This document shows positions 18,917 through 53,700 of a stretch of 64,000 nt of DNA, in pieces (the stretch's first letter is position 1; each line of letters opens with the position of its first letter). This DNA comes from Aulosira sp. ZfuVER01 (GTDB taxonomy: Bacteria > Cyanobacteriota > Cyanobacteriia > Cyanobacteriales > Nostocaceae), in assembly GCA_034530615.2 (NCBI GenBank), contig JAVRCV020000073.1:96001-160000 (forward strand). The letters run 5' to 3'. Position numbers and translations under genes: made by a program. The notes under the pieces are model-generated. The model was not told the origin of the DNA, searched no databases, and saw only the letters and a program-made list of their open reading frames with translations.

Positions 18917-18941
18917 GGGTGATTGGAAAGATGCGGAGAAA

Positions 18942-19004
18942 GGGGGACGCGGAGAGTAATTTCCCCGCGTCCCCGCGTCCCTGTGTCTCCGCGTCCTCTT
19001 CCCC
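18942..19004. repeat. Octamer (CCGCGTCC-like) tandem/inverted repeat
   Basis: GGGGACGCGGAGA...TCCCCGCGTCCCCGCGTCCCTGTGTCTCCGCGTCC. Confidence 0.7.
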
Positions 19005-19023
19005 ATCTTGTAACTTCTCCACT

Positions 19024-21854: not shown

Positions 21855-24257
21855 GTGGACAAACTCTACTGGCTTGACCAAATTAAACTCCAAGACCGCG
21901 CCAAAGTAGGTGACAAAGCATTTTACTTGAGCCGAATTATGCAGCGTGGCTACCCTGTAGTACCTGGCTTTGTCGTTGGGGCGGAAGTTTTGCAACAATT
22001 CTTAGAAACTCTTAATAGTTCAGAGTCATTAGTTGCCGATTTACCCCATTCTTCATTACATCTAGATGTCGCTAATTGGCGTCAACTTCAGCAGGTAGCT
22101 GGCCGCTTGCGTCAGGAAATTATTACTGCCACTGTACCACCGTCTTGGGTCAGCAACATTCTCACAGCAGCTAGAGAATTAGAAAGTGAGCATTTAATTT
22201 TGCGTCCAACGGTGATGGTTTCCAATACTACCCAGTCGGTAGGGAATATATCAGGGTTGTTGGAGTCAGTCTTTTGCCCTTGTAATCAAGAAGCGATCGC
22301 TATAGGATTAAAGCGCACTTGGAGTCAGTTATTTCGTGCGAGAAGTCTACTCTATTGGCAACGCTCAGGCACTAATCTACAACAAGTTAATTTAGCAGTT
22401 TTAGTACAGCCTATTCGCAATGCTATTGCTAGCGGCTTACTCAACGCCAATACCTCTGGATGGGAAATTGCAGCTACTTACGGATTGGGAGTAGCGATCG
22501 CTAATGGTGAAGTTTTACCGGATCTCTACTATATTCAACCAGAAACCGGAAAGTTAATCGAGCAAGAGCTAGGCAATAAAATCTTAGCTTACCGTCTTGA
22601 CAACATAGCTGCTAAAAATGACTTGCAACTGATGCCGCAGTCAGTATTGACATTAGATAATACTTGTCTAGTTGCCTATCTCCTCAACGAAAACCAACAA
22701 AAACAGTATGCTTTACCAGAAGATTACCTGCAACAAGTAATTGTTTTAGGTAATCAACTCCTCAGTGAATTAGGTAAAAATTTTTATATTGAATGGACGA
22801 TTTCACAGGAAACTCCCACGCCCAAACTCTACCTTACACAAGTTAGTAACCCCCAATCGGCAATTCCTAATCTCCAAATCATCAAAGGGCTAGGGGCAGC
22901 AAGAGGACGAGTCACAGCAACCGCATTCGTGATTGCCCATTCCCCAACGAAACCAGAACAGCTACCCCAAGGAGTGATTTTAGTTGCCCGGACGATCAAT
23001 CCTGATTGGTTGCCGTTCTTACAACAGATTGCAGGTATTATTACAGAACAAGGCGGCTTGACCAGCCATGCAGCAATCCTGGCTAGAGAATTGGGAATTC
23101 CCGCAGTAGTCAGCGCTACAGATGTCACTGCCCTAATTCAATCTGGTGAAAGACTACATGTAGATGGCGATCGCGGAGAAGTTTCTCGTGTTAGAGAAGA
23201 CATAGCCGCAGAAAGGACTCCACCAAGATGGGATTCAGCGAAAAATCTAGAACTCAATGATTCTCACTCCTCCATGCCCTCATTGCCTGCTCACTCCAAT
23301 TCGTGGGAACCCCTAACCCCAAGATCTTCTTTGTCTCCTCCCCAACCGCTAATAGCCACCCAACTGCTCTTGAACCTGAGTCAAAGCAGTTTAATTGAAC
23401 AAGTAAAAAATTTACCTGTAGATGGGGTAGGTTTATTGCGCTCGGAACTGATGATGCTCACCATACTGGAGGGACAACACCCCAATAGTTGGCTAGCAGA
23501 TGGGCGTCAGGCAGAATTGCTAGATCTCTGGACTGAGCAGATTATGCAATTTGCCTGTGGTTTTGCACCACGACCGATCTTATATCGCTCTTTGGATTGG
23601 CGATCGCATGAGTTGCCATCGTTTCCCCATCATCTCCAATCTTCATCACAGGCGGTCTTGGGCGAACGTGGCATTTTTAGTTATTTACTTAATCCCGCAG
23701 TTTTTGAGTTGGAATTGGCGGCTTTAGCGAGTGTACAGAAAGCTGGTTACAGCAATATCAACCTCTTATTACCCTTTGTTCGCAGTGTAGAAGAGTTTTC
23801 CCTTTGCCGTCAAAAAGTTGAGCAAGCCGGATTAACTCAGGTACCTCAGTTTCAACTATGGATTATGGCAGAAGTTCCAAGCGTGCTGTTTTTACTCCCA
23901 GAATATGTCAAAGCAGGGGTAGAAGGAATTTCCATTGGCACAAATGACCTCACCCAACTCCTTCTAGGAGTAGATCGAGACAAAGAACAGCTAGCAAGAA
24001 GATTTAACGAACTGCACCCCGCAGTTATGGGTGCGATCGCGCAACTAATCCAGATGTCCAAAGATGCCGAAATTCCTTGTGCAATCTGCGGACAAGCACC
24101 AGCGCTTTATCCAGAAATCATCGACAGATTAGTGCAATGGGGTATTACGGCAATTTCCGTAGAACCAGAAGCCATAGAGCGAACATATCAAGCGATCGCC
24201 CGTGCCGAACAACGCCTAATTTTAGAAGCCGCACGGCGTCAGTTGAAGGGCGAGTGA
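21855..24257 (+). CDS. PEP synthase-like protein with a divergent nucleotide-binding domain
   Basis: GGLTSHAAILARELGIPAV phospho-His domain; GVGLLRSE, SIGTNDLTQ, CGQ. Confidence 0.85.
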   Translation: MDKLYWLDQIKLQDRAKVGDKAFYLSRIMQRGYPVVPGFVVGAEVLQQFLETLNSSESLVADLPHSSLHLDVANWRQLQQVAGRLRQEIITATVPPSWVSNILTAARELESEHLILRPTVMVSNTTQSVGNISGLLESVFCPCNQEAIAIGLKRTWSQLFRARSLLYWQRSGTNLQQVNLAVLVQPIRNAIASGLLNANTSGWEIAATYGLGVAIANGEVLPDLYYIQPETGKLIEQELGNKILAYRLDNIAAKNDLQLMPQSVLTLDNTCLVAYLLNENQQKQYALPEDYLQQVIVLGNQLLSELGKNFYIEWTISQETPTPKLYLTQVSNPQSAIPNLQIIKGLGAARGRVTATAFVIAHSPTKPEQLPQGVILVARTINPDWLPFLQQIAGIITEQGGLTSHAAILARELGIPAVVSATDVTALIQSGERLHVDGDRGEVSRVREDIAAERTPPRWDSAKNLELNDSHSSMPSLPAHSNSWEPLTPRSSLSPPQPLIATQLLLNLSQSSLIEQVKNLPVDGVGLLRSELMMLTILEGQHPNSWLADGRQAELLDLWTEQIMQFACGFAPRPILYRSLDWRSHELPSFPHHLQSSSQAVLGERGIFSYLLNPAVFELELAALASVQKAGYSNINLLLPFVRSVEEFSLCRQKVEQAGLTQVPQFQLWIMAEVPSVLFLLPEYVKAGVEGISIGTNDLTQLLLGVDRDKEQLARRFNELHPAVMGAIAQLIQMSKDAEIPCAICGQAPALYPEIIDRLVQWGITAISVEPEAIERTYQAIARAEQRLILEAARRQLKGE

Positions 24258-24390
24258 GGGGGACAAGGGAGACAAGGAGGACAAGAAATTTTAGATTTTA
24301 GATTTTGGATTTTAGATTGAAATCTAATCCAAAATCGTAAATCCAAAATCCAAAATTGTTTCCAATGCCCAATGCCCAATGCCCCATTAC
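24258..24390. repeat. Cluster of short tandem repeats between convergent genes
   Basis: GGACAAGG-like x3; (ATTTTAG)n inverted against (ATCCAAA)n; (CCAATGC)3. Confidence 0.8.
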
Positions 24391-27690: not shown

Positions 27691-27879
27691 TTATGAACTG
27701 CGTACATTATGAAGAATGAACATTTTCCCGATCGCCAGATCTGTATGGTCAACCCACCGCCTAGCTGAAAGCAAGCAGGTAATTTGCCAGATAGAGACTC
27801 CCGACAATAGTAATAGCAGGATAATCGGCAGAGCGATCGCGTCGATCAGTCTCCGCCTGAATGCAATGGTATAACTCGT
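27691..27879 (-). pseudogene. Remnant of the N-terminus of a probable CHASE3 sensor kinase
   Basis: Manual translation AFRRRLIDAIALPIILLLLLSGVSIWQITCLLSARRWVDHTD (TM followed by WVxHT); no start codon, early stop. Confidence 0.6.
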
Positions 27880-27880
27880 A

Positions 27881-28040
27881 AATCAAGTTTTTGATTCGCA
27901 AATTAAGTTTTTGATTCGCAAATTAAGTTTTTGACTTGCAAATCAAGTTTCTGACTCGCAAATCAAGTTTTTGACTCGCAAATTAAGTTTTTGACTCGCA
28001 AATTAAGTTTTTGATTCGCAAATTAAGTTTTTGATTCAGA
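27881..28040. repeat. 8 x 20-nt tandem repeat
   Basis: AAT(T/C)AAGTTTTTGA(T/C)TCGCA, no spacers. Confidence 0.95.
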
Positions 28041-28149
28041 AATTAGCTTCACAATTGATTAACTGGCTAATTACATCAAATTCCGTTATATCTAACGGTT
28101 TATATCCTAAAGCTTAATCTCATAGCTCTATCAGTTCATTAGCTTGCAT

Positions 28150-47836: not shown

Positions 47837-48406
47837 ATGATTTTAAATTTAAAACATCTCAGTGCTGTGTGTGTCGCACTTTTGCTAGCTAGCGCTAGCA
47901 GCTTCCCTAATTCAGCTATAGCATCTGCAAACAATCAATCTCAGAAGATTGCACAAAGCCAAGCTCAAACAAGTAAGTCTCAAGTAAATCCGGTTTTTAA
48001 GGCGATTCTACCCAAATTAAAGCAAAAAACTCAAATCAGGATTTTATTACCTAAGTTTATTCCTGAGTCGGATGGAGAAAACCCAATTTATGCAATTGTA
48101 GAAAACGCTACGCTGAAAAAATACGAAATCTTACTGGGTTTTAGTCCCGATTGTACTGGTGGAACTGCTTGCCGTTTAGGTATTGTGACTGCTGAAGCTG
48201 TAACACGTAAAACACCTCGTTTGACTGGGAAAGCTATCTCGTTAGCCAAGGGTATGACTGGCTATTTTGTGGATTTTAGTTGTGGTGCTAATTGCTCAGA
48301 TGCTACCTTGACTTGGCGGCAACAGGGTGTGCAATATACTGTTGGGTTGAAAGCAGGCGATCGCTCTTCGTTGGTAAAAATGGCTAATTCTGCGATCAAT
48401 CCCTAG
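47837..48406 (+). CDS. Exported hypothetical protein with Cys pairs
   Basis: Signal peptide; CTGGTAC, CGANC. Confidence 0.8.
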   Translation: MILNLKHLSAVCVALLLASASSFPNSAIASANNQSQKIAQSQAQTSKSQVNPVFKAILPKLKQKTQIRILLPKFIPESDGENPIYAIVENATLKKYEILLGFSPDCTGGTACRLGIVTAEAVTRKTPRLTGKAISLAKGMTGYFVDFSCGANCSDATLTWRQQGVQYTVGLKAGDRSSLVKMANSAINP

Positions 48407-48523
48407 AACGTCGATTCAGTTGTGCAGTTGGTTGTTGGTGTAGGTTTTAATGTAGGAGATAGGTTTGATTATCCTCTCTGTACCTAGCAATGAATATTAA
48501 AGCGATGTAGAAGGCAAAAAATT

Positions 48524-49207
48524 ATGATTCAAGCCTTACGTAAGCTAGTAACATTTGATGATTTTATCGCTTGGTATCCAGAAAACTCCCTACAACGCTA
48601 TGAACTGCATGACGGAGTAATTGTTGAGATGTCCCCACCTACTGGCGATCATGAAGAAATTATCGGTTTTTTAGCGCTAGAAATATCTGTTGAAATCAGG
48701 CGACTAAAACTGCCTTATTTTATTCCCAAAACAGCATTCATCAAACCATTGGAAGGTGACTCAGCTTACTCACCAGATGTGTTGATATTAAATCAGCCTA
48801 ATTTAGTGAATGAGCCTCGATGGAAAAAAGAATCGACTGTCAGCCAAGCTGAATCAATTCCTTTAGCAATTGAAGTGGTGAGTCAGTGCGTTGCGCGGGT
48901 TCCCCGCGTTAAAGCAACTGACGAACCCGTAAGGGTTAGTACCAACTGGAGAGATGATTATTTAAAAAAAGCGGCTGACTATGAAGCAGTAGGTATTCCC
49001 GAATACTGGATTGTCGATTATGCAGCTTTAGGTGGTAGGCGGTTTATTGGCAATCCCAAACAACCCACTATCTCGATTTACTCGTTAGTTGAGGGGGAAT
49101 ACCAAGTTCGGCAGTTCCTTCAAGGAGAACGCCTCATCTCACAAGTTTTCCCGGAATTAAATTTGGCTGCTGAACAAATTTTTCAAGTTGGAAGTGTGCC
49201 AAGTTAG
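48524..49207 (+). CDS. Uma2 (DUF820) endonuclease with a 19-aa in-frame insertion
   Basis: YELHDG, YSPDV, IEVVS, STNWRDDY, GIPEYWIVD. Confidence 0.9.
   Translation: MIQALRKLVTFDDFIAWYPENSLQRYELHDGVIVEMSPPTGDHEEIIGFLALEISVEIRRLKLPYFIPKTAFIKPLEGDSAYSPDVLILNQPNLVNEPRWKKESTVSQAESIPLAIEVVSQCVARVPRVKATDEPVRVSTNWRDDYLKKAADYEAVGIPEYWIVDYAALGGRRFIGNPKQPTISIYSLVEGEYQVRQFLQGERLISQVFPELNLAAEQIFQVGSVPS
48878..48934 (+). mobile_element. 57-nt structured mini-element inserted in frame
   Basis: GTGAGTCAGTGC...GCAACTGACGAACCCGTAAGG; same family as 43151-43253. Confidence 0.75.
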
Positions 49208-49241
49208 AACATCGATTCAGTAATCATGATTGTTACGGTAA

Positions 49242-49704
49242 GGACAAGGGGACAAGGGGACAAGGGGACAAGGAGATGAAAAAAGAATCCATCAAGACTC
49301 ATGAAGATTTAGAGGTTTATCAACAGGCGTTCTCCGCAGCGATGGAAATCTTTGAAATCTCGAAGACATTTCCAGTAGAGGAACGATATTCCTTAACTGA
49401 CCAAATTCGTCGATCATCTCGCTCAGTATGCGCTAATTTAGCGGAAGCTTGGCGCAAACGAAGATATAAAGCAGCCTTTGTTGCTAAACTTAATGATTGT
49501 GAAGCAGAAGCCGCAGAAACTCAAGTCTGGCTGAAGTTTGCTGTGAAATGCAACTACTTAGATATAGAACAAGGGCGAGAATTGTATGGACTTTATAATC
49601 GAGTTCTCGGACAATTGGTGAGCATGATTAACAACCCTTCTGTTTGGATCATTCGGCAATAAAGGATACTCTCCTTGTCCCCTTGTCCCCTTTTCCCCTT
49701 GTCC
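49242..49704. repeat. Inverted (GGACAAGG)4AG arrays enclosing one gene
   Basis: 49242-49275 vs 49671-49704, 33/34 complementary. Confidence 0.92.
49276..49662 (+). CDS. Four-helix-bundle protein (23S rRNA IVP / TIGR02436-like)
   Basis: DLEVYQ, FP.EERYSLTDQIRRSSRSVCANLAEAW, EAAETQVW. Confidence 0.92.
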   Translation: MKKESIKTHEDLEVYQQAFSAAMEIFEISKTFPVEERYSLTDQIRRSSRSVCANLAEAWRKRRYKAAFVAKLNDCEAEAAETQVWLKFAVKCNYLDIEQGRELYGLYNRVLGQLVSMINNPSVWIIRQ

Positions 49705-49713
49705 CCCAATTGA

Positions 49714-49743
49714 AAACCCCTCTTCGCGTGCGAGGAGGGGTTT
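49714..49743. terminator. Bidirectional terminator
   Basis: AAACCCCTCTTCGC-gt-GCGAGGAGGGGTTT. Confidence 0.7.
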
Positions 49744-49757
49744 AACTTTGAATATTC

Positions 49758-50741
49758 TTAATATCCTTCTTCTTCGTATTCTGGCTGTTTTTCTTTAACT
49801 TTCTTGGGAATATTCACGGGCTTTGGTGCATCGTCCCAAGCATCGCCATCTACATCGTCATAATTGTCGTACTCGTCAACGTATGGCTTTTTGTAGGGTT
49901 GGGCTTCATACTTTAGAGGCTGTTGATAACTGTCTTTATCTGTCGCCTCACTCCAGTTGTCTTCTTCGTCGTCTTCTTCGTATTGAATCGATTCGTACTG
50001 TCGCGCTTGCATTACCTGGCGCTGGGGTCTTTCTTCTTCCACATAGTCTTCATCCCATTCTTCCCGGGCTACGGGTTCGGGGGTGCGAACTTTTGGCTTG
50101 GGTGGTTGCAATGGTACACCGCTTGGTAGTTGGTTCGCAGGTGCTACAGTGCGAGGGGCACTATAGCCGTATTCTTCATCAGCATCGCGCTCCCACGGGG
50201 CTTTGCCAATACCTAAACGCTCTAGCAAGCCAACTGTCAATTGATTGGCGCGTTCTTCAGCTCCTTCAAATACAATCAATCTGCTGGGGCCTGTGCTGAC
50301 GATTTCTTCAATTGATAGTTCGTAAGTACTCAAGACTTGCTCAGGTATTTGTGGCAATCCCAAAGAAGCAATGACTATGGAATGAAGTTTGCCATTTTCA
50401 CCATTGAATTTGAAGCCCCGCACTCTACCTAGTACTTCGCCGGTTTCTGTAATTACTTCCCAGTTAATTAGGTTGCTTAATGCTTCTACTTCAATATCTT
50501 CAATTACGTCCTCGTTATCTACCAGGATGACATCACCAATCTGGCTGATACTGCTAAGGTACATATTGCGCGGTATACCAGAAATAGAGATCAGGCTGTC
50601 TCTCAAGCCAAGAGCCACAACCTCTCTTTGGTCAATATCCACCCAGACTTGACTGACGATGCCTACTCGCTTACCGTTATCGCGGGTAATCACCTGAGTA
50701 TTTAATATGTCGGAACGCCTAATTATCTGTTCAGAGGTCAT
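49758..50741 (-). CDS. Tandem PRC-barrel protein with an acidic tail
   Basis: ILNTQVITRDNGKRVG and LINWEVITETGEVLGRV; start at 50741. Confidence 0.85.
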   Translation of the reverse strand: MTSEQIIRRSDILNTQVITRDNGKRVGIVSQVWVDIDQREVVALGLRDSLISISGIPRNMYLSSISQIGDVILVDNEDVIEDIEVEALSNLINWEVITETGEVLGRVRGFKFNGENGKLHSIVIASLGLPQIPEQVLSTYELSIEEIVSTGPSRLIVFEGAEERANQLTVGLLERLGIGKAPWERDADEEYGYSAPRTVAPANQLPSGVPLQPPKPKVRTPEPVAREEWDEDYVEEERPQRQVMQARQYESIQYEEDDEEDNWSEATDKDSYQQPLKYEAQPYKKPYVDEYDNYDDVDGDAWDDAPKPVNIPKKVKEKQPEYEEEGY

Positions 50742-50799
50742 TCTATACCGAGTCCTGATCTCGAATCCGGTTAATCTATACACTATTATTAACAAAAAC

Positions 50800-53700
50800 T
50801 CAAGCAGATGTATGGTCGGTTTGCAATTTAATTCCCAAAACTTGGGTGTAAGCGCCCCGTGCTTGAGTAACGCCAATTGTGCGTTCGGCTGATTCTATCA
50901 TCGGTCGGCGCAAACTCACAACTATAAATTGTGCTTGTTTTGCCTGTTGTTTAATCATTCTAGCTAATCGCTCTACGTTTGCCCCATCCAAAAACATATC
51001 GACTTCGTCAAAAGCGTAGAAGGGTGAAGGGCGATAGCGTTGCAAGGAAAAGATAAAGCTTAAGGCTGTGAGAGATTTTTCACCACCGGACATGGAAGCT
51101 AATCTTTGCACCGGTTTTCCTTTGGGGTGTGCTACCAGATTGAGTCCACTGCTAAAGGGATCTTCGGGATCGTCTAGTTGTAGGTAGCCATCACCGTCGG
51201 AAAGGGTGGCGAAAATTGATTGGAAGTTTTCGTTTACTGCGTCGAAGGCTTCTTTAAAGGCGCGTTGACGCAATGTAGTAAAGTTTTCAATCCGCAAAAG
51301 TAATTCTGTGCGCTCTCCTTCTAATGTTTCTAGTTTTTGCGTCAGTTCTTGCAGGCGGTTTTGGGTGCGTTCATATTCTTCTAAGGCCAGCATATTTACT
51401 GGTTCCATTGCTTGCAAGCGTTTGGCAAGCGATCGCAATTCTTTCTGCAATTCTTCTAAGTCTACTTGATCGGGTACTTCTGGCAGAGGATCGGGCAATT
51501 CTGGCGCTAGGGTTTGCAGTTGCTCTTTGACGTTAACTAATTCCTCACGCCGTGCTACAAGAGTTTCTTGGAGTTTTTCCAGTTCCCATTCTAATTGTTG
51601 TTGACGCAGGAGATGCGATCGCAATTCTTGTTCGGTGCGATCGCGTTTTTGCTTTTCTTCCCCTAAATTCTGTTCCATCTGGCTCAACGTCGCCCGCATT
51701 TCGGCAATTTGGGTGCTGAGTGCTGAGTGCTGGGTACTGAGTGCAGTTAGTTGATTTTGCTGTGTTTCTTGCTCCTGCTGGTATTGAGCAATTCGTTCCT
51801 CGGCTTCTTGGATTTTTTCTTGTAAGCGCTGTTGCTGATTTTCGAGATTTTTTAATCTTTGTTCGGCTTCGCGTAAGGCTGTCTCTCTTTGTTGTAATTG
51901 TTGCTCTTGGTTTTTAATGGTTGCTTGGATTTGTTGCCATTCGCTGGGGGTTTGGGAGGCTTCTAACTCCGCTAAAGTTTGTCGCAATTGTTGCAACTGC
52001 GTTTCTTGTCCTGGTAATTCCCGATCTAGAATCTCCAAGCGAGATTGAGCAGTGGCGAATTTTTCGTTATTTTGCGCTAATTGCGATCGCGTTGTTTCTA
52101 ACTGCGCTGTCAAAGTTTTAATTTCTTTTTGCAACTGTTCTAATTGCAACTGCTGTTCGCGCCGCGCTTGACGTGCTTCTGTGACTTCTTGCGCCAAGGC
52201 TTTGGTTTTGATTGATAGCTTATTGATGGCTTCACCACAACGATCTAAAACTCGCTCAATTTCTCCTAAGCGATTTCTTAAAGCGGCGACTTCTTCCGGT
52301 TCGGCGGCTTCCACGTTCCCAAACCGCAACGATGAACGCTGGTTGTTGCTACCACCAGTCATCGCACCGCTAGTTTCTAATAATTCGCCGTCTAAGGTGA
52401 CAATGCGGTATAAACCTAAGTTTTTCCGCGCCTGTTCTAAGGTAGAAAATACGACGGTGTTACCAAATACATAGCTAAAAACATCTTTATAACGGCGATC
52501 GCACTCAACTAAATTTACAGCATAGTTGACGAAGCCACTGGCTAGACGCAGTGTGGCATCTTGGGTAAATCTGGGAGCGTTAATTTTATTTAAGGGTAAA
52601 AAAGTAGCTCTCCCGGCGCGTTTCTGCTTTAACAGTTCAATCCCAGCAGCCGCAACACCATCATCTTCCACCACAATATGTCCTAAACGCCCACCAGCAG
52701 CAATTTCCAAAGCTAGCTGAAAACGGGGTTCGACTCTGCCTAACTGTACCACTAAGCCACAAAGTCCCGGCATTCCTGATTGCATGATGACTTTGCTAGC
52801 TTGAGTTCCTTGGATTTCTTGTTGTGCTTGCGCTTGCGCTTCAAGTTTATCTAACTGTCGTTGTTTTTCCCGTTGTTCTTGTAAAAGCCGCTTTTGCGTA
52901 TCCTGTTGGATTTGCAGTTCTTGTTCTGTGGCTGCGAGATTTTGCGCTAAGTTTTGGATCGGTTCGCTAGAGGCGTTAAATTCTGTTTCTAGGCGACTAC
53001 AATCAGCTTGTTTTGTGGCTAATTCTGGTTCTAAAGTGGCAATTAGCTGGGTTTGCTCTTGAATTTGCTGCTGTAGTTGGCTATTACGCTCTGTTAACTG
53101 TGCTTGCTCAGTGCGTTGGGGTTCGAGAGTTTGCAGCAAAGTTTCGATTTGACGGTTTAACGCCGTTTGTTGCTGTACCCACGCTTCCGAAGCCGAAGCA
53201 ATTTCTGCTGCTGCTTGGCGAGAAACTTCTAAACCTTGTTGCGTCTCATCCCGCTGCTGCTGACAGTAGACGATTGATTGCTTTTCGACAACCTGAGTTT
53301 GCGCAATTTGTTCTAGGGAACGTTGGTGTTGTTGAATTTCTTGCTGGCTTTGCGCCTGACGTTTGGTAGTTTCTTGAGTGGCTGTTTCTAATTCGCTGCG
53401 TTGACGCTGGAGTTGTTTGTACTCAGCTTCTTGGGTAGCGAGGCTAGATTGTACCGCTAAAAGTTCCTCTTCCCCCAAAGCTTTCACATGAGCATTGAGT
53501 TGATCGAGTTCAACGGTGGTTTGCTCAATTGTAGTGTTGAGAGTTGTCAGTTCCGCCGAAAGTTCTTGTGATTTGCGATCGCCATTTTGAATTTGGTTAG
53601 CTAATTTTTCTTGCTGTGCTTGTAGAGAACGCCACGATAACACTGCTTCCCAAGATTGTTTGGCGAGATATTCGGCGCGGAGTTTTTGGTATTTTTCGGC

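Follow-up and report, generated by a model that had tools for sequence, protein, structure and literature searches.

A PF05635 gene between inverted tandem-repeat arms in a cyanobacterial intergenic region, and its relation to dispersed STRR-type arrays

The intervening sequence (IVS) in the 23S rRNA of Coxiella burnetii has a 28-bp stem, tandem heptamers before the S23p gene and cleavage by RNase III, and its ORF is described in the accessible text of the same paper as decaying and not expressed (PMC4990558). Structures have been solved for members of PF05635, a large family that has no known function, and the available portions of two papers that mention it do so without repeats (PMC10053308 and PMC8700078). 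Avd, the accessory protein of diversity-generating retroelements, accommodates flipped RNA bases in the spaces between its five protomers, according to the accessible part of a preprint (bioRxiv 10.1101/2023.10.23.563531). For decades, STRR-type repeats have served as markers in typing, and neither an origin nor a partner is known for them. Heptamer units such as GGGGA(C/T)T and GGGAATC (PMC4692102) as well as TAACTGA (PMC4679880) have been reported, and a supplementary table of the former paper places a 4-unit GGGAATC array across the start of xcc0516, the gene of structure 2GSC, with no inverted partner listed in the accessible table. The accessible parts of these two papers contain neither a link to PF05635 nor a strand polarity across unit families.

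Here, we have analyzed a locus in a stretch of 64,000 nucleotides from Aulosira sp. ZfuVER01 (contig JAVRCV020000073.1, positions 96,001 to 160,000; hereafter the window), for which a preliminary description had proposed an IVS-like one-gene cassette outside rRNA. No description of an extra-rRNA cassette, of a link to STRRs or of their polarity was found in a search of the accessible literature, beyond whose reach lay subscription articles and the original STRR papers; the cassette outside rRNA and its STRR link are apparently unpublished.

The cassette in the window and its protein

The cassette lies between a Uma2 gene (PF05685; 48524..49207, + strand), which is upstream on the same strand, and a convergent PRC-barrel gene (49758..50876, - strand), which was used as the anchor for locating the orthologous site in relatives. 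The upstream arm (49242..49275, + strand) is (GGACAAGG)4AG, namely four GGACAAGG units and AG, and its last base directly precedes the ATG at 49276. The PF05635/TIGR02436 gene (49276..49662, + strand; 128 aa, 'WRKRRY' subfamily) ends in a TAA at 49662, and the right arm (49671-49704) begins 8 nt later. A repeat search delimits the inverted arms as 49242-49276 and 49670-49704 (35 nt, 97% complementary), the downstream arm (49670..49704, + strand) being a reverse-complement array of the CCTTGTCC type with one mismatch; 33 of 34 positions pair, or 34 of 35 when the A of the ATG is counted. The arm positions, spacing and 33/34 match given in the preliminary description are thereby confirmed, and its picture of one hairpin with the ORF as the loop agrees with the predicted RNA fold of 49200-49760, in which the arm stem closes round the whole ORF (-194.5 kcal/mol, z -8.4, none of 100 shuffles as good, with part of this contributed by a neighboring terminator-like hairpin). 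That hairpin (49714..49743, no strand assigned), located between the convergent genes, is kept in relatives that do not have the cassette and is a host feature outside it. Only 3 overlapping matches to (GGACAAGG)4 are present in the whole 8.03-Mb genome, and an Rfam scan of the window locus returned a single chance match (E 0.47).

The array is the source of two SD-like sequences, AAGGAG, which adjoins the ATG, and AAGGGG at 49262-49267, placed 8 nt 5' of the ATG as had been noted previously. The suggestion that the stem would occlude this ribosome-binding site holds in part: such occlusion is predicted for only 83 of the 141 armed loci, and the gene is under purifying selection, so the stem cannot fully silence it. 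Because no promoter-like site was found on the + strand between Uma2 and the window ATG, the Uma2 gene is the probable source of read-through transcription of the cassette. One contig from an RNA library (X3, record 18), which represents a relative's allele and is of a kind that cannot show RNA ends or levels, spans 49243-50900 without a joint and starts inside the repeat.

The neighboring Uma2 gene has features of its own. Together with its leader, it is bracketed by a near-perfect 17-nt direct repeat (48403-48419 and 49204-49220), and in one relative (G005) the cassette directly follows the first copy of this repeat and Uma2 is absent. In addition, Uma2 carries an in-frame palindromic insertion of ~50 nt (~48885-48940), where relatives are without it or different, and which we take to resemble a small dispersed repeat.

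The window ORF scores well above the family cut-offs (TIGR02436, 98 bits vs 24; PF05635, 106 bits vs 33.8) and below those of two Avd models (NF033474, 28 vs 80 bits; PF22296, 29 vs 40 bits), and the profile of the HUH tyrosine transposase Y1_Tnp gave no qualifying match in the cassette. The predicted structure, a four-helix bundle (pLDDT 93.9), has its best fold matches in Xcc0516 (2GSC) and BT_0352 (2RLD), both of which contain 5 chains, and matches Avd (4DWL) more weakly (TM 0.75); the earlier family assignment and the relation to Avd were thus both correct. The dN/dS values of 0.063-0.095 against the four nearest homologues indicate that the protein is made.

Inverted arms and gene sites in relatives

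Inverted flanks are enriched around PF05635 genes, as the preliminary description had anticipated. When the same scoring rule was applied, a flank score of at least 40 was observed in 57 of 111 PF05635 loci (8 partial matches left out) and in 8 of 1593 ORFs of 100-200 aa in the window genome, the latter comprising 3 PF05635, 3 GxxExxY-like, 1 DUF559 and 1 RAYT-like gene, of which the five outside PF05635 resemble nucleases or transposases. A larger panel of 218 loci (261 matches less 7 partial, 28 duplicate and 8 short-flank rows), which is cyanobacterial, drawn from the best matches listed and made up of loci that are not independent, contains 158 of 208 loci with a score of at least 30 and 50 of 208 below it (arms absent), together with a separate clade of 10 that has none. 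The window genome itself (G000) has six PF05635 loci, five of which show by eye inverted periodic flanks, each with its own unit. The arm length mode is 5 units, by a soft count that allows 2 mismatches per unit. Genomes have between 0 and 26 paralogues, many of them broken. The cassette phenomenon is real and general.

Several individual loci deserve mention. An armed paralogue (G000 C63:46090-46514) is broken by two short palindromic insertions, the first of which shifts the frame, and the downstream arm of another (G000 C25:213873-213904) appears to provide the start codon of the next gene. Among non-PF05635 loci, a DUF559 gene (G000 C3:70405-71014) and a Y1_Tnp RAYT-like gene just below the cut-off (G000 C22:72516-73184) are both enclosed by long inverted repeats. 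The upstream gene is on the same strand in 55 of 71 armed loci and in 230 of 375 controls; this excess, based on crude ORF calls, is only modest, and obligate co-transcription with the upstream gene was rejected.

The boundaries of the cassette are defined by its homologues. In seven non-orthologous ones, similarity to the 3.2-kb window region is confined to the part from arm to arm, beginning at 49242-49258 and ending at 49649-49707. At the orthologous site, located in 29 loci of relatives by means of the PRC-barrel gene, the cassette is present in one (G005); two others (G010 and G007) are empty, with the Uma2 stop almost directly joined to the terminator and with neither arm nor gene. No target duplication at the window site was seen in comparison with these empty relatives. 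Since the closest relatives at the PRC-barrel gene (G003 and G008) do not have the whole upstream block, gain and loss cannot be polarized at this site.

Two paralogue sites show further states. At the C25 site, a near-full-length gene is present in 13 of 14 relatives, some copies being broken. Seven of these have arms of TTTGTCA type, four of TCAAGAG/TCAAGGG type and two have TCAATAG-led arms, and the arms on the two sides switch type jointly. The C52 gene is present in one relative, and 8 of 9 other loci examined at this site are junctions without it; one of the eight retains the downstream arm only, and seven carry arrays of other, mismatched units. In one orthologous pair the PF05635 gene is inverted. 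Locus comparisons thus reveal that the cassette has been gained, lost, relocated, swapped and inverted as a unit. Given the arm-to-arm matches elsewhere, the empty sites in relatives and dN/dS values of 0.06-0.10, sequence comparison indicates that the window cassette is a discrete, expressed, relocating one. The proposal of a discrete IVS-like one-gene cassette outside rRNA is supported by these observations, including empty alleles at the window and C52 sites as well as arm-to-arm homology at unrelated sites.

Multiple copies were rejected as proof that cassettes move by themselves: seven copies in G033 (L067-L072, L057) lie inside a common 1896-bp ISL3-like element and three in G016 (L075-L077) inside a 1.4-1.6-kb element with an IS607-like gene, both labels resting on ORF reading, and the copies are passengers in these larger elements. 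An insertion sequence or MITE was likewise rejected, as there is no transposase and no visible target duplication and identical copies occur only inside the larger IS-like elements. A motif screen of 218 loci (flanks of 0.5-2.5 kb) for a partner reverse transcriptase or nuclease beside the gene yielded no RT-motif ORF and one GxxExxY-like ORF.

Each PF05635 subfamily carries a characteristic 7-9-base unit on both sides of the gene. In a sample of 9000 random pairs among the 158 armed loci, arms cross-paired in 97% of 143 pairs at protein identities of at least 90%, 45% of 1107 pairs at 80-90%, 25% of 774 pairs at 70-80%, 13% of 119 pairs at 60-70% and 0-4% below 60%. Consistently, 71 unit changes are required on the protein tree vs at least 113 in each of 200 shuffles, and units are retained even where synonymous sites have diverged or become saturated. 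In sequence terms, this tracking could be explained by linkage alone; the search for a residue-to-base code returned 1 independent pair, and none of the 72 top candidates (of 3912) reached 6 informative pairs.

Among 25 representatives of armed clusters, residues R46, S50, N54 and E57 show 96-100% conservation. In the IKIAQG clade (G000 C64:68470-68781 plus L255-L260, L270 and L274), of which 0 of 10 members are armed, these residues are changed (R46L, S50A, N54K and E57Q), which represents a single event and not independent replicates. The clade is syntenically fixed upstream of a conserved gene and is likely a domesticated form, judging from its sequences.

It is scarcely credible that the G-rich arrays are simply G-quadruplex or cruciform elements whose position round the gene is incidental. 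The left arm does contain three GGGG runs, and G-rich heptamer repeats favoring four units have been proposed as quadruplexes in the accessible text of PMC4692102; however, AT-rich units such as AAAATTC, TTTTAGA and TTTGTCA, which cannot form quadruplexes, flank other subfamilies with the same polarity.

Dispersed arrays and their polarity

The preliminary description had linked the cassette to orphan arrays elsewhere in the genome, and this link is upheld by shared units and shared polarity. Tandem repeats of 7-9 bases, intergenic and in a heterocystous-type cyanobacterial genome, as defined for STRRs, were found in the window genome; the unit definitions and names applied to them are those of Mazel et al. 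1990. Of 272 exact heptamer arrays with at least 3 units, 197 use one of 36 cassette unit classes (3% of possible heptamer classes), which were taken from both gene sides in other genomes. The corresponding numbers are 5 of 12 for 8-mer and 9 of 60 for 9-mer arrays, and the commonest 9-mer outside the cassette classes is the arm of the genome's own C52 cassette. Within the window, a module of four arrays (24257..24384, no strand assigned) consists of two upstream-type arrays followed by two downstream-type ones (9-mer GGGGGACAA, TTTTAGA, AATCCAA and CCAATGC); its first array, taken earlier for an octamer-like one at 24258-24285, is actually a 9-mer array of GGGGGACAA type at 24257-24285. Similarly, the octamers at 18942, which had been regarded as related to those of the cassette, are of a GACGC type that flanks a different paralogue, and form an orphan inverted pair without a gene (18930..19005, no strand assigned) similar to the one that flanks the paralogue on contig C4. 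A 20-bp unit is also present in 8.6 copies in an array at 27874-28045 of the window.

Across 61 genomes of the family, the PF05635 count correlates with the array count (rho 0.49 for TTDGKCA and 0.45 for GACAAG), and the 3 genomes that have no PF05635 contain 0-2 TTDGKCA matches and no GACAAG match. The median number of TTDGKCA matches is 213.5 where a C25-type protein is present vs 18 where it is absent. The window subfamily shows p=0.057 with GACAAG arrays, which the presence of a C25-type protein likewise tracks (p=0.018), both p-values being overstated by the kinship of the genomes; unit specificity across genomes is therefore weak. The exceptions are large: G000 has 65 TTGGGCA-class arrays, yet this arm occurs at 0 of its 6 PF05635 loci, G088 has 2667 TTDGKCA matches without any C25-type protein match at E<=1e-30, and G020 has 779 GACAAG matches without a match to the window protein.

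The orphan arrays follow a strict strand rule that constrains any mechanism. If U denotes the strand found upstream of the cassette gene and D its complement, neighboring orphan arrays up to 250 nt apart are arranged as U-D in 119 cases, U-U in 24, D-D in 22 and D-U in none; one mixed pattern was matched 78 times (overlaps counted) in U-D order, in 7 of 61 genomes, and never in D-U order. Among 424 arrays of classes with at least 4 cases and a panel orientation, 383 have a U strand that points away from the closest host gene end (145 of 157 for non-G-rich units). The PF05635 gene is the exception to this rule because it sits inside the module. Only 16 of 119 U-D orphan pairs have matching units, which is chance level (shuffled mean 18.8), and an inverted partner within 300 nt is found for 37 of 344 arrays vs 19 for a control unit. 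Orphans are thus polarized, mostly non-pairing chimeras, unlike cassette arms, and the view that they are empty hairpins was rejected for most of them. The orphan examples named in the preliminary description conform to this pattern.

These features allow two further explanations to be weighed. One is that the protein is a host regulator, a TRAP- or Hfq-like RNA-binding ring retained by the host: it would bind the dispersed arrays at gene ends, the arms would have a purely autoregulatory role, and the cassette would be moved passively by ordinary recombination and IS hitch-hiking. We regard this as rather unlikely. Purifying selection, arrays close to gene ends with a fixed strand, stable residence at the C25 site, passengers in IS elements and the short-flank screen in which a catalytic partner was not found all speak for it. 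It is harder to reconcile with arrays that switch unit freely among relatives at one orthologous site, with paralogue numbers of 0 to 26, many of them broken, and with a strand rule that is equal at starts and stops, which means that the sense strand differs between gene ends.

The other explanation, which appears quite improbable, considers the gene as passive cargo: another agent, either slippage plus recombination or a GxxExxY/PDDEXK_3-type nuclease, would spread polarized modules, and PF05635 would inherit its arms by linkage. GxxExxY-like genes (PDDEXK_3, PF13366) in inverted periodic arms adjoining the ATG were indeed observed at G000 C39:21804-22270 (assigned by profile scan), C7:116209-116584 and C80:16666-17041 (both by similarity), i.e., in 3 of 4 such genes in the window genome; arrays also persist without a cognate gene, and no residue-to-base code emerged. 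But the two arms flanking a PF05635 gene match each other, those of orphans pair at random, a gene swap changes both arms together, units outlast synonymous sites, and the armless clade has lost conserved residues, none of which fits simple cargo. The repeat unit flanking the C80 gene is similar to that of the armed PF05635 paralogue on C4. The GxxExxY-like genes make up a second family of the same design and may provide a catalytic partner for PF05635.

Proposed mechanism and relation to known systems

On balance, we lean slightly toward the reading that a pentameric PF05635 protein recognizes its cognate repeats and maintains or spreads them, in the way that RAYT acts on REPs. The window cassette is one copy of a discrete unit consisting of tandem-repeat arm, PF05635 gene and inverted arm, and we regard it as the intergenic form of the ORF-bearing 23S rRNA IVS. 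The protein would probably assemble into a pentameric ring like that of Avd and bind its cognate unit, as single-stranded RNA or DNA, through a conserved face comprising Q43/R46/S50/N54/E57/E81, at about one unit per protomer, since the arm mode is 5 units and Avd holds flipped bases between protomers. Our confidence is evenly divided on the next step, in which the cassette would be transcribed by read-through from a host gene and translated before the 3' arm is synthesized, after which the arms would close into a stem over the ribosome-binding site; stem and bound ring would then shut off translation, and the closed stem would be an RNase III substrate, by analogy with Coxiella. Equally balanced is our judgment that arm-bound protein may bring both arms together for recombination by host or trans-acting enzymes or for reverse transcription with a catalyst in trans, whereby cassettes and single arms would be copied to gene ends. 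Orphan arrays would then be arms left behind or seeded in this way, related to the cassette as REPs are to RAYT.

A bolder version, which we consider doubtful, is that PF05635 proteins are programmable pentameric repeat readers behind bacterial 7-9-base tandem repeats, with a separate unit for every subfamily, and that they write or exchange arms at a single end in each step. The two 3' ends left by an intergenic break could be extended separately with the upstream-type strand and rejoined, or arms could be exchanged singly; either one-end route would result in strict polarity with random arm pairing. If this were true, a single undescribed class of minimal mobile elements would give rise to both rRNA IVSs and STRRs.

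The locus supplies exact boundaries, empty and swapped alleles, an armless clade and strict polarity with random pairing in a heterocystous-type genome. It gives STRR-type repeats a candidate partner protein, and ties PF05635 and STRRs to rRNA intervening sequences. Matched and mismatched protein-repeat pairs, as well as the natural armless clade, allow direct tests of binding and mobility and, if the specificity is real, PF05635 offers small repeat-binding rings for RNA or ssDNA.

Among known systems, Avd (4DWL) shares the fold, and the accessible part of the preprint describes it as a pentamer with base-binding crevices between protomers (bioRxiv 10.1101/2023.10.23.563531); in contrast, the window ORF is below the Avd cut-offs, with no RT, template repeat or variable gene nearby. 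The heptamer repeats of heterocystous cyanobacteria and Xanthomonas, as far as the accessible papers describe them, have the same units, intergenic position and about four to five units. RAYT/REP systems (PMC3116915, accessible text) are likewise single-copy distinct genes flanked by a cognate repeat that is dispersed genome-wide, with the repeat class following the protein; they differ in that PF05635 has no known catalytic motif, its units are tandem rather than palindromic, and orphan doublets are mismatched rather than REPIN-like hairpins. The ORF-bearing 23S IVSs of Coxiella, and of Leptospira as cited in the accessible text of PMC4990558, share with the cassette the protein family, a length of ~430-460 nt, terminal inverted repeats, a 28-35-bp stem round the ORF, short tandem repeats of variable copy number just 5' of the start codon and a patchy distribution. 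Of the features that define such an IVS, a stem round an S23p-type ORF and sporadic presence with empty alleles are both found here, whereas location inside an rRNA gene is not: the window cassette is intergenic, between Uma2 and PRC-barrel genes, is built on an octamer unit, is under purifying selection and uses units common to hundreds of dispersed arrays.
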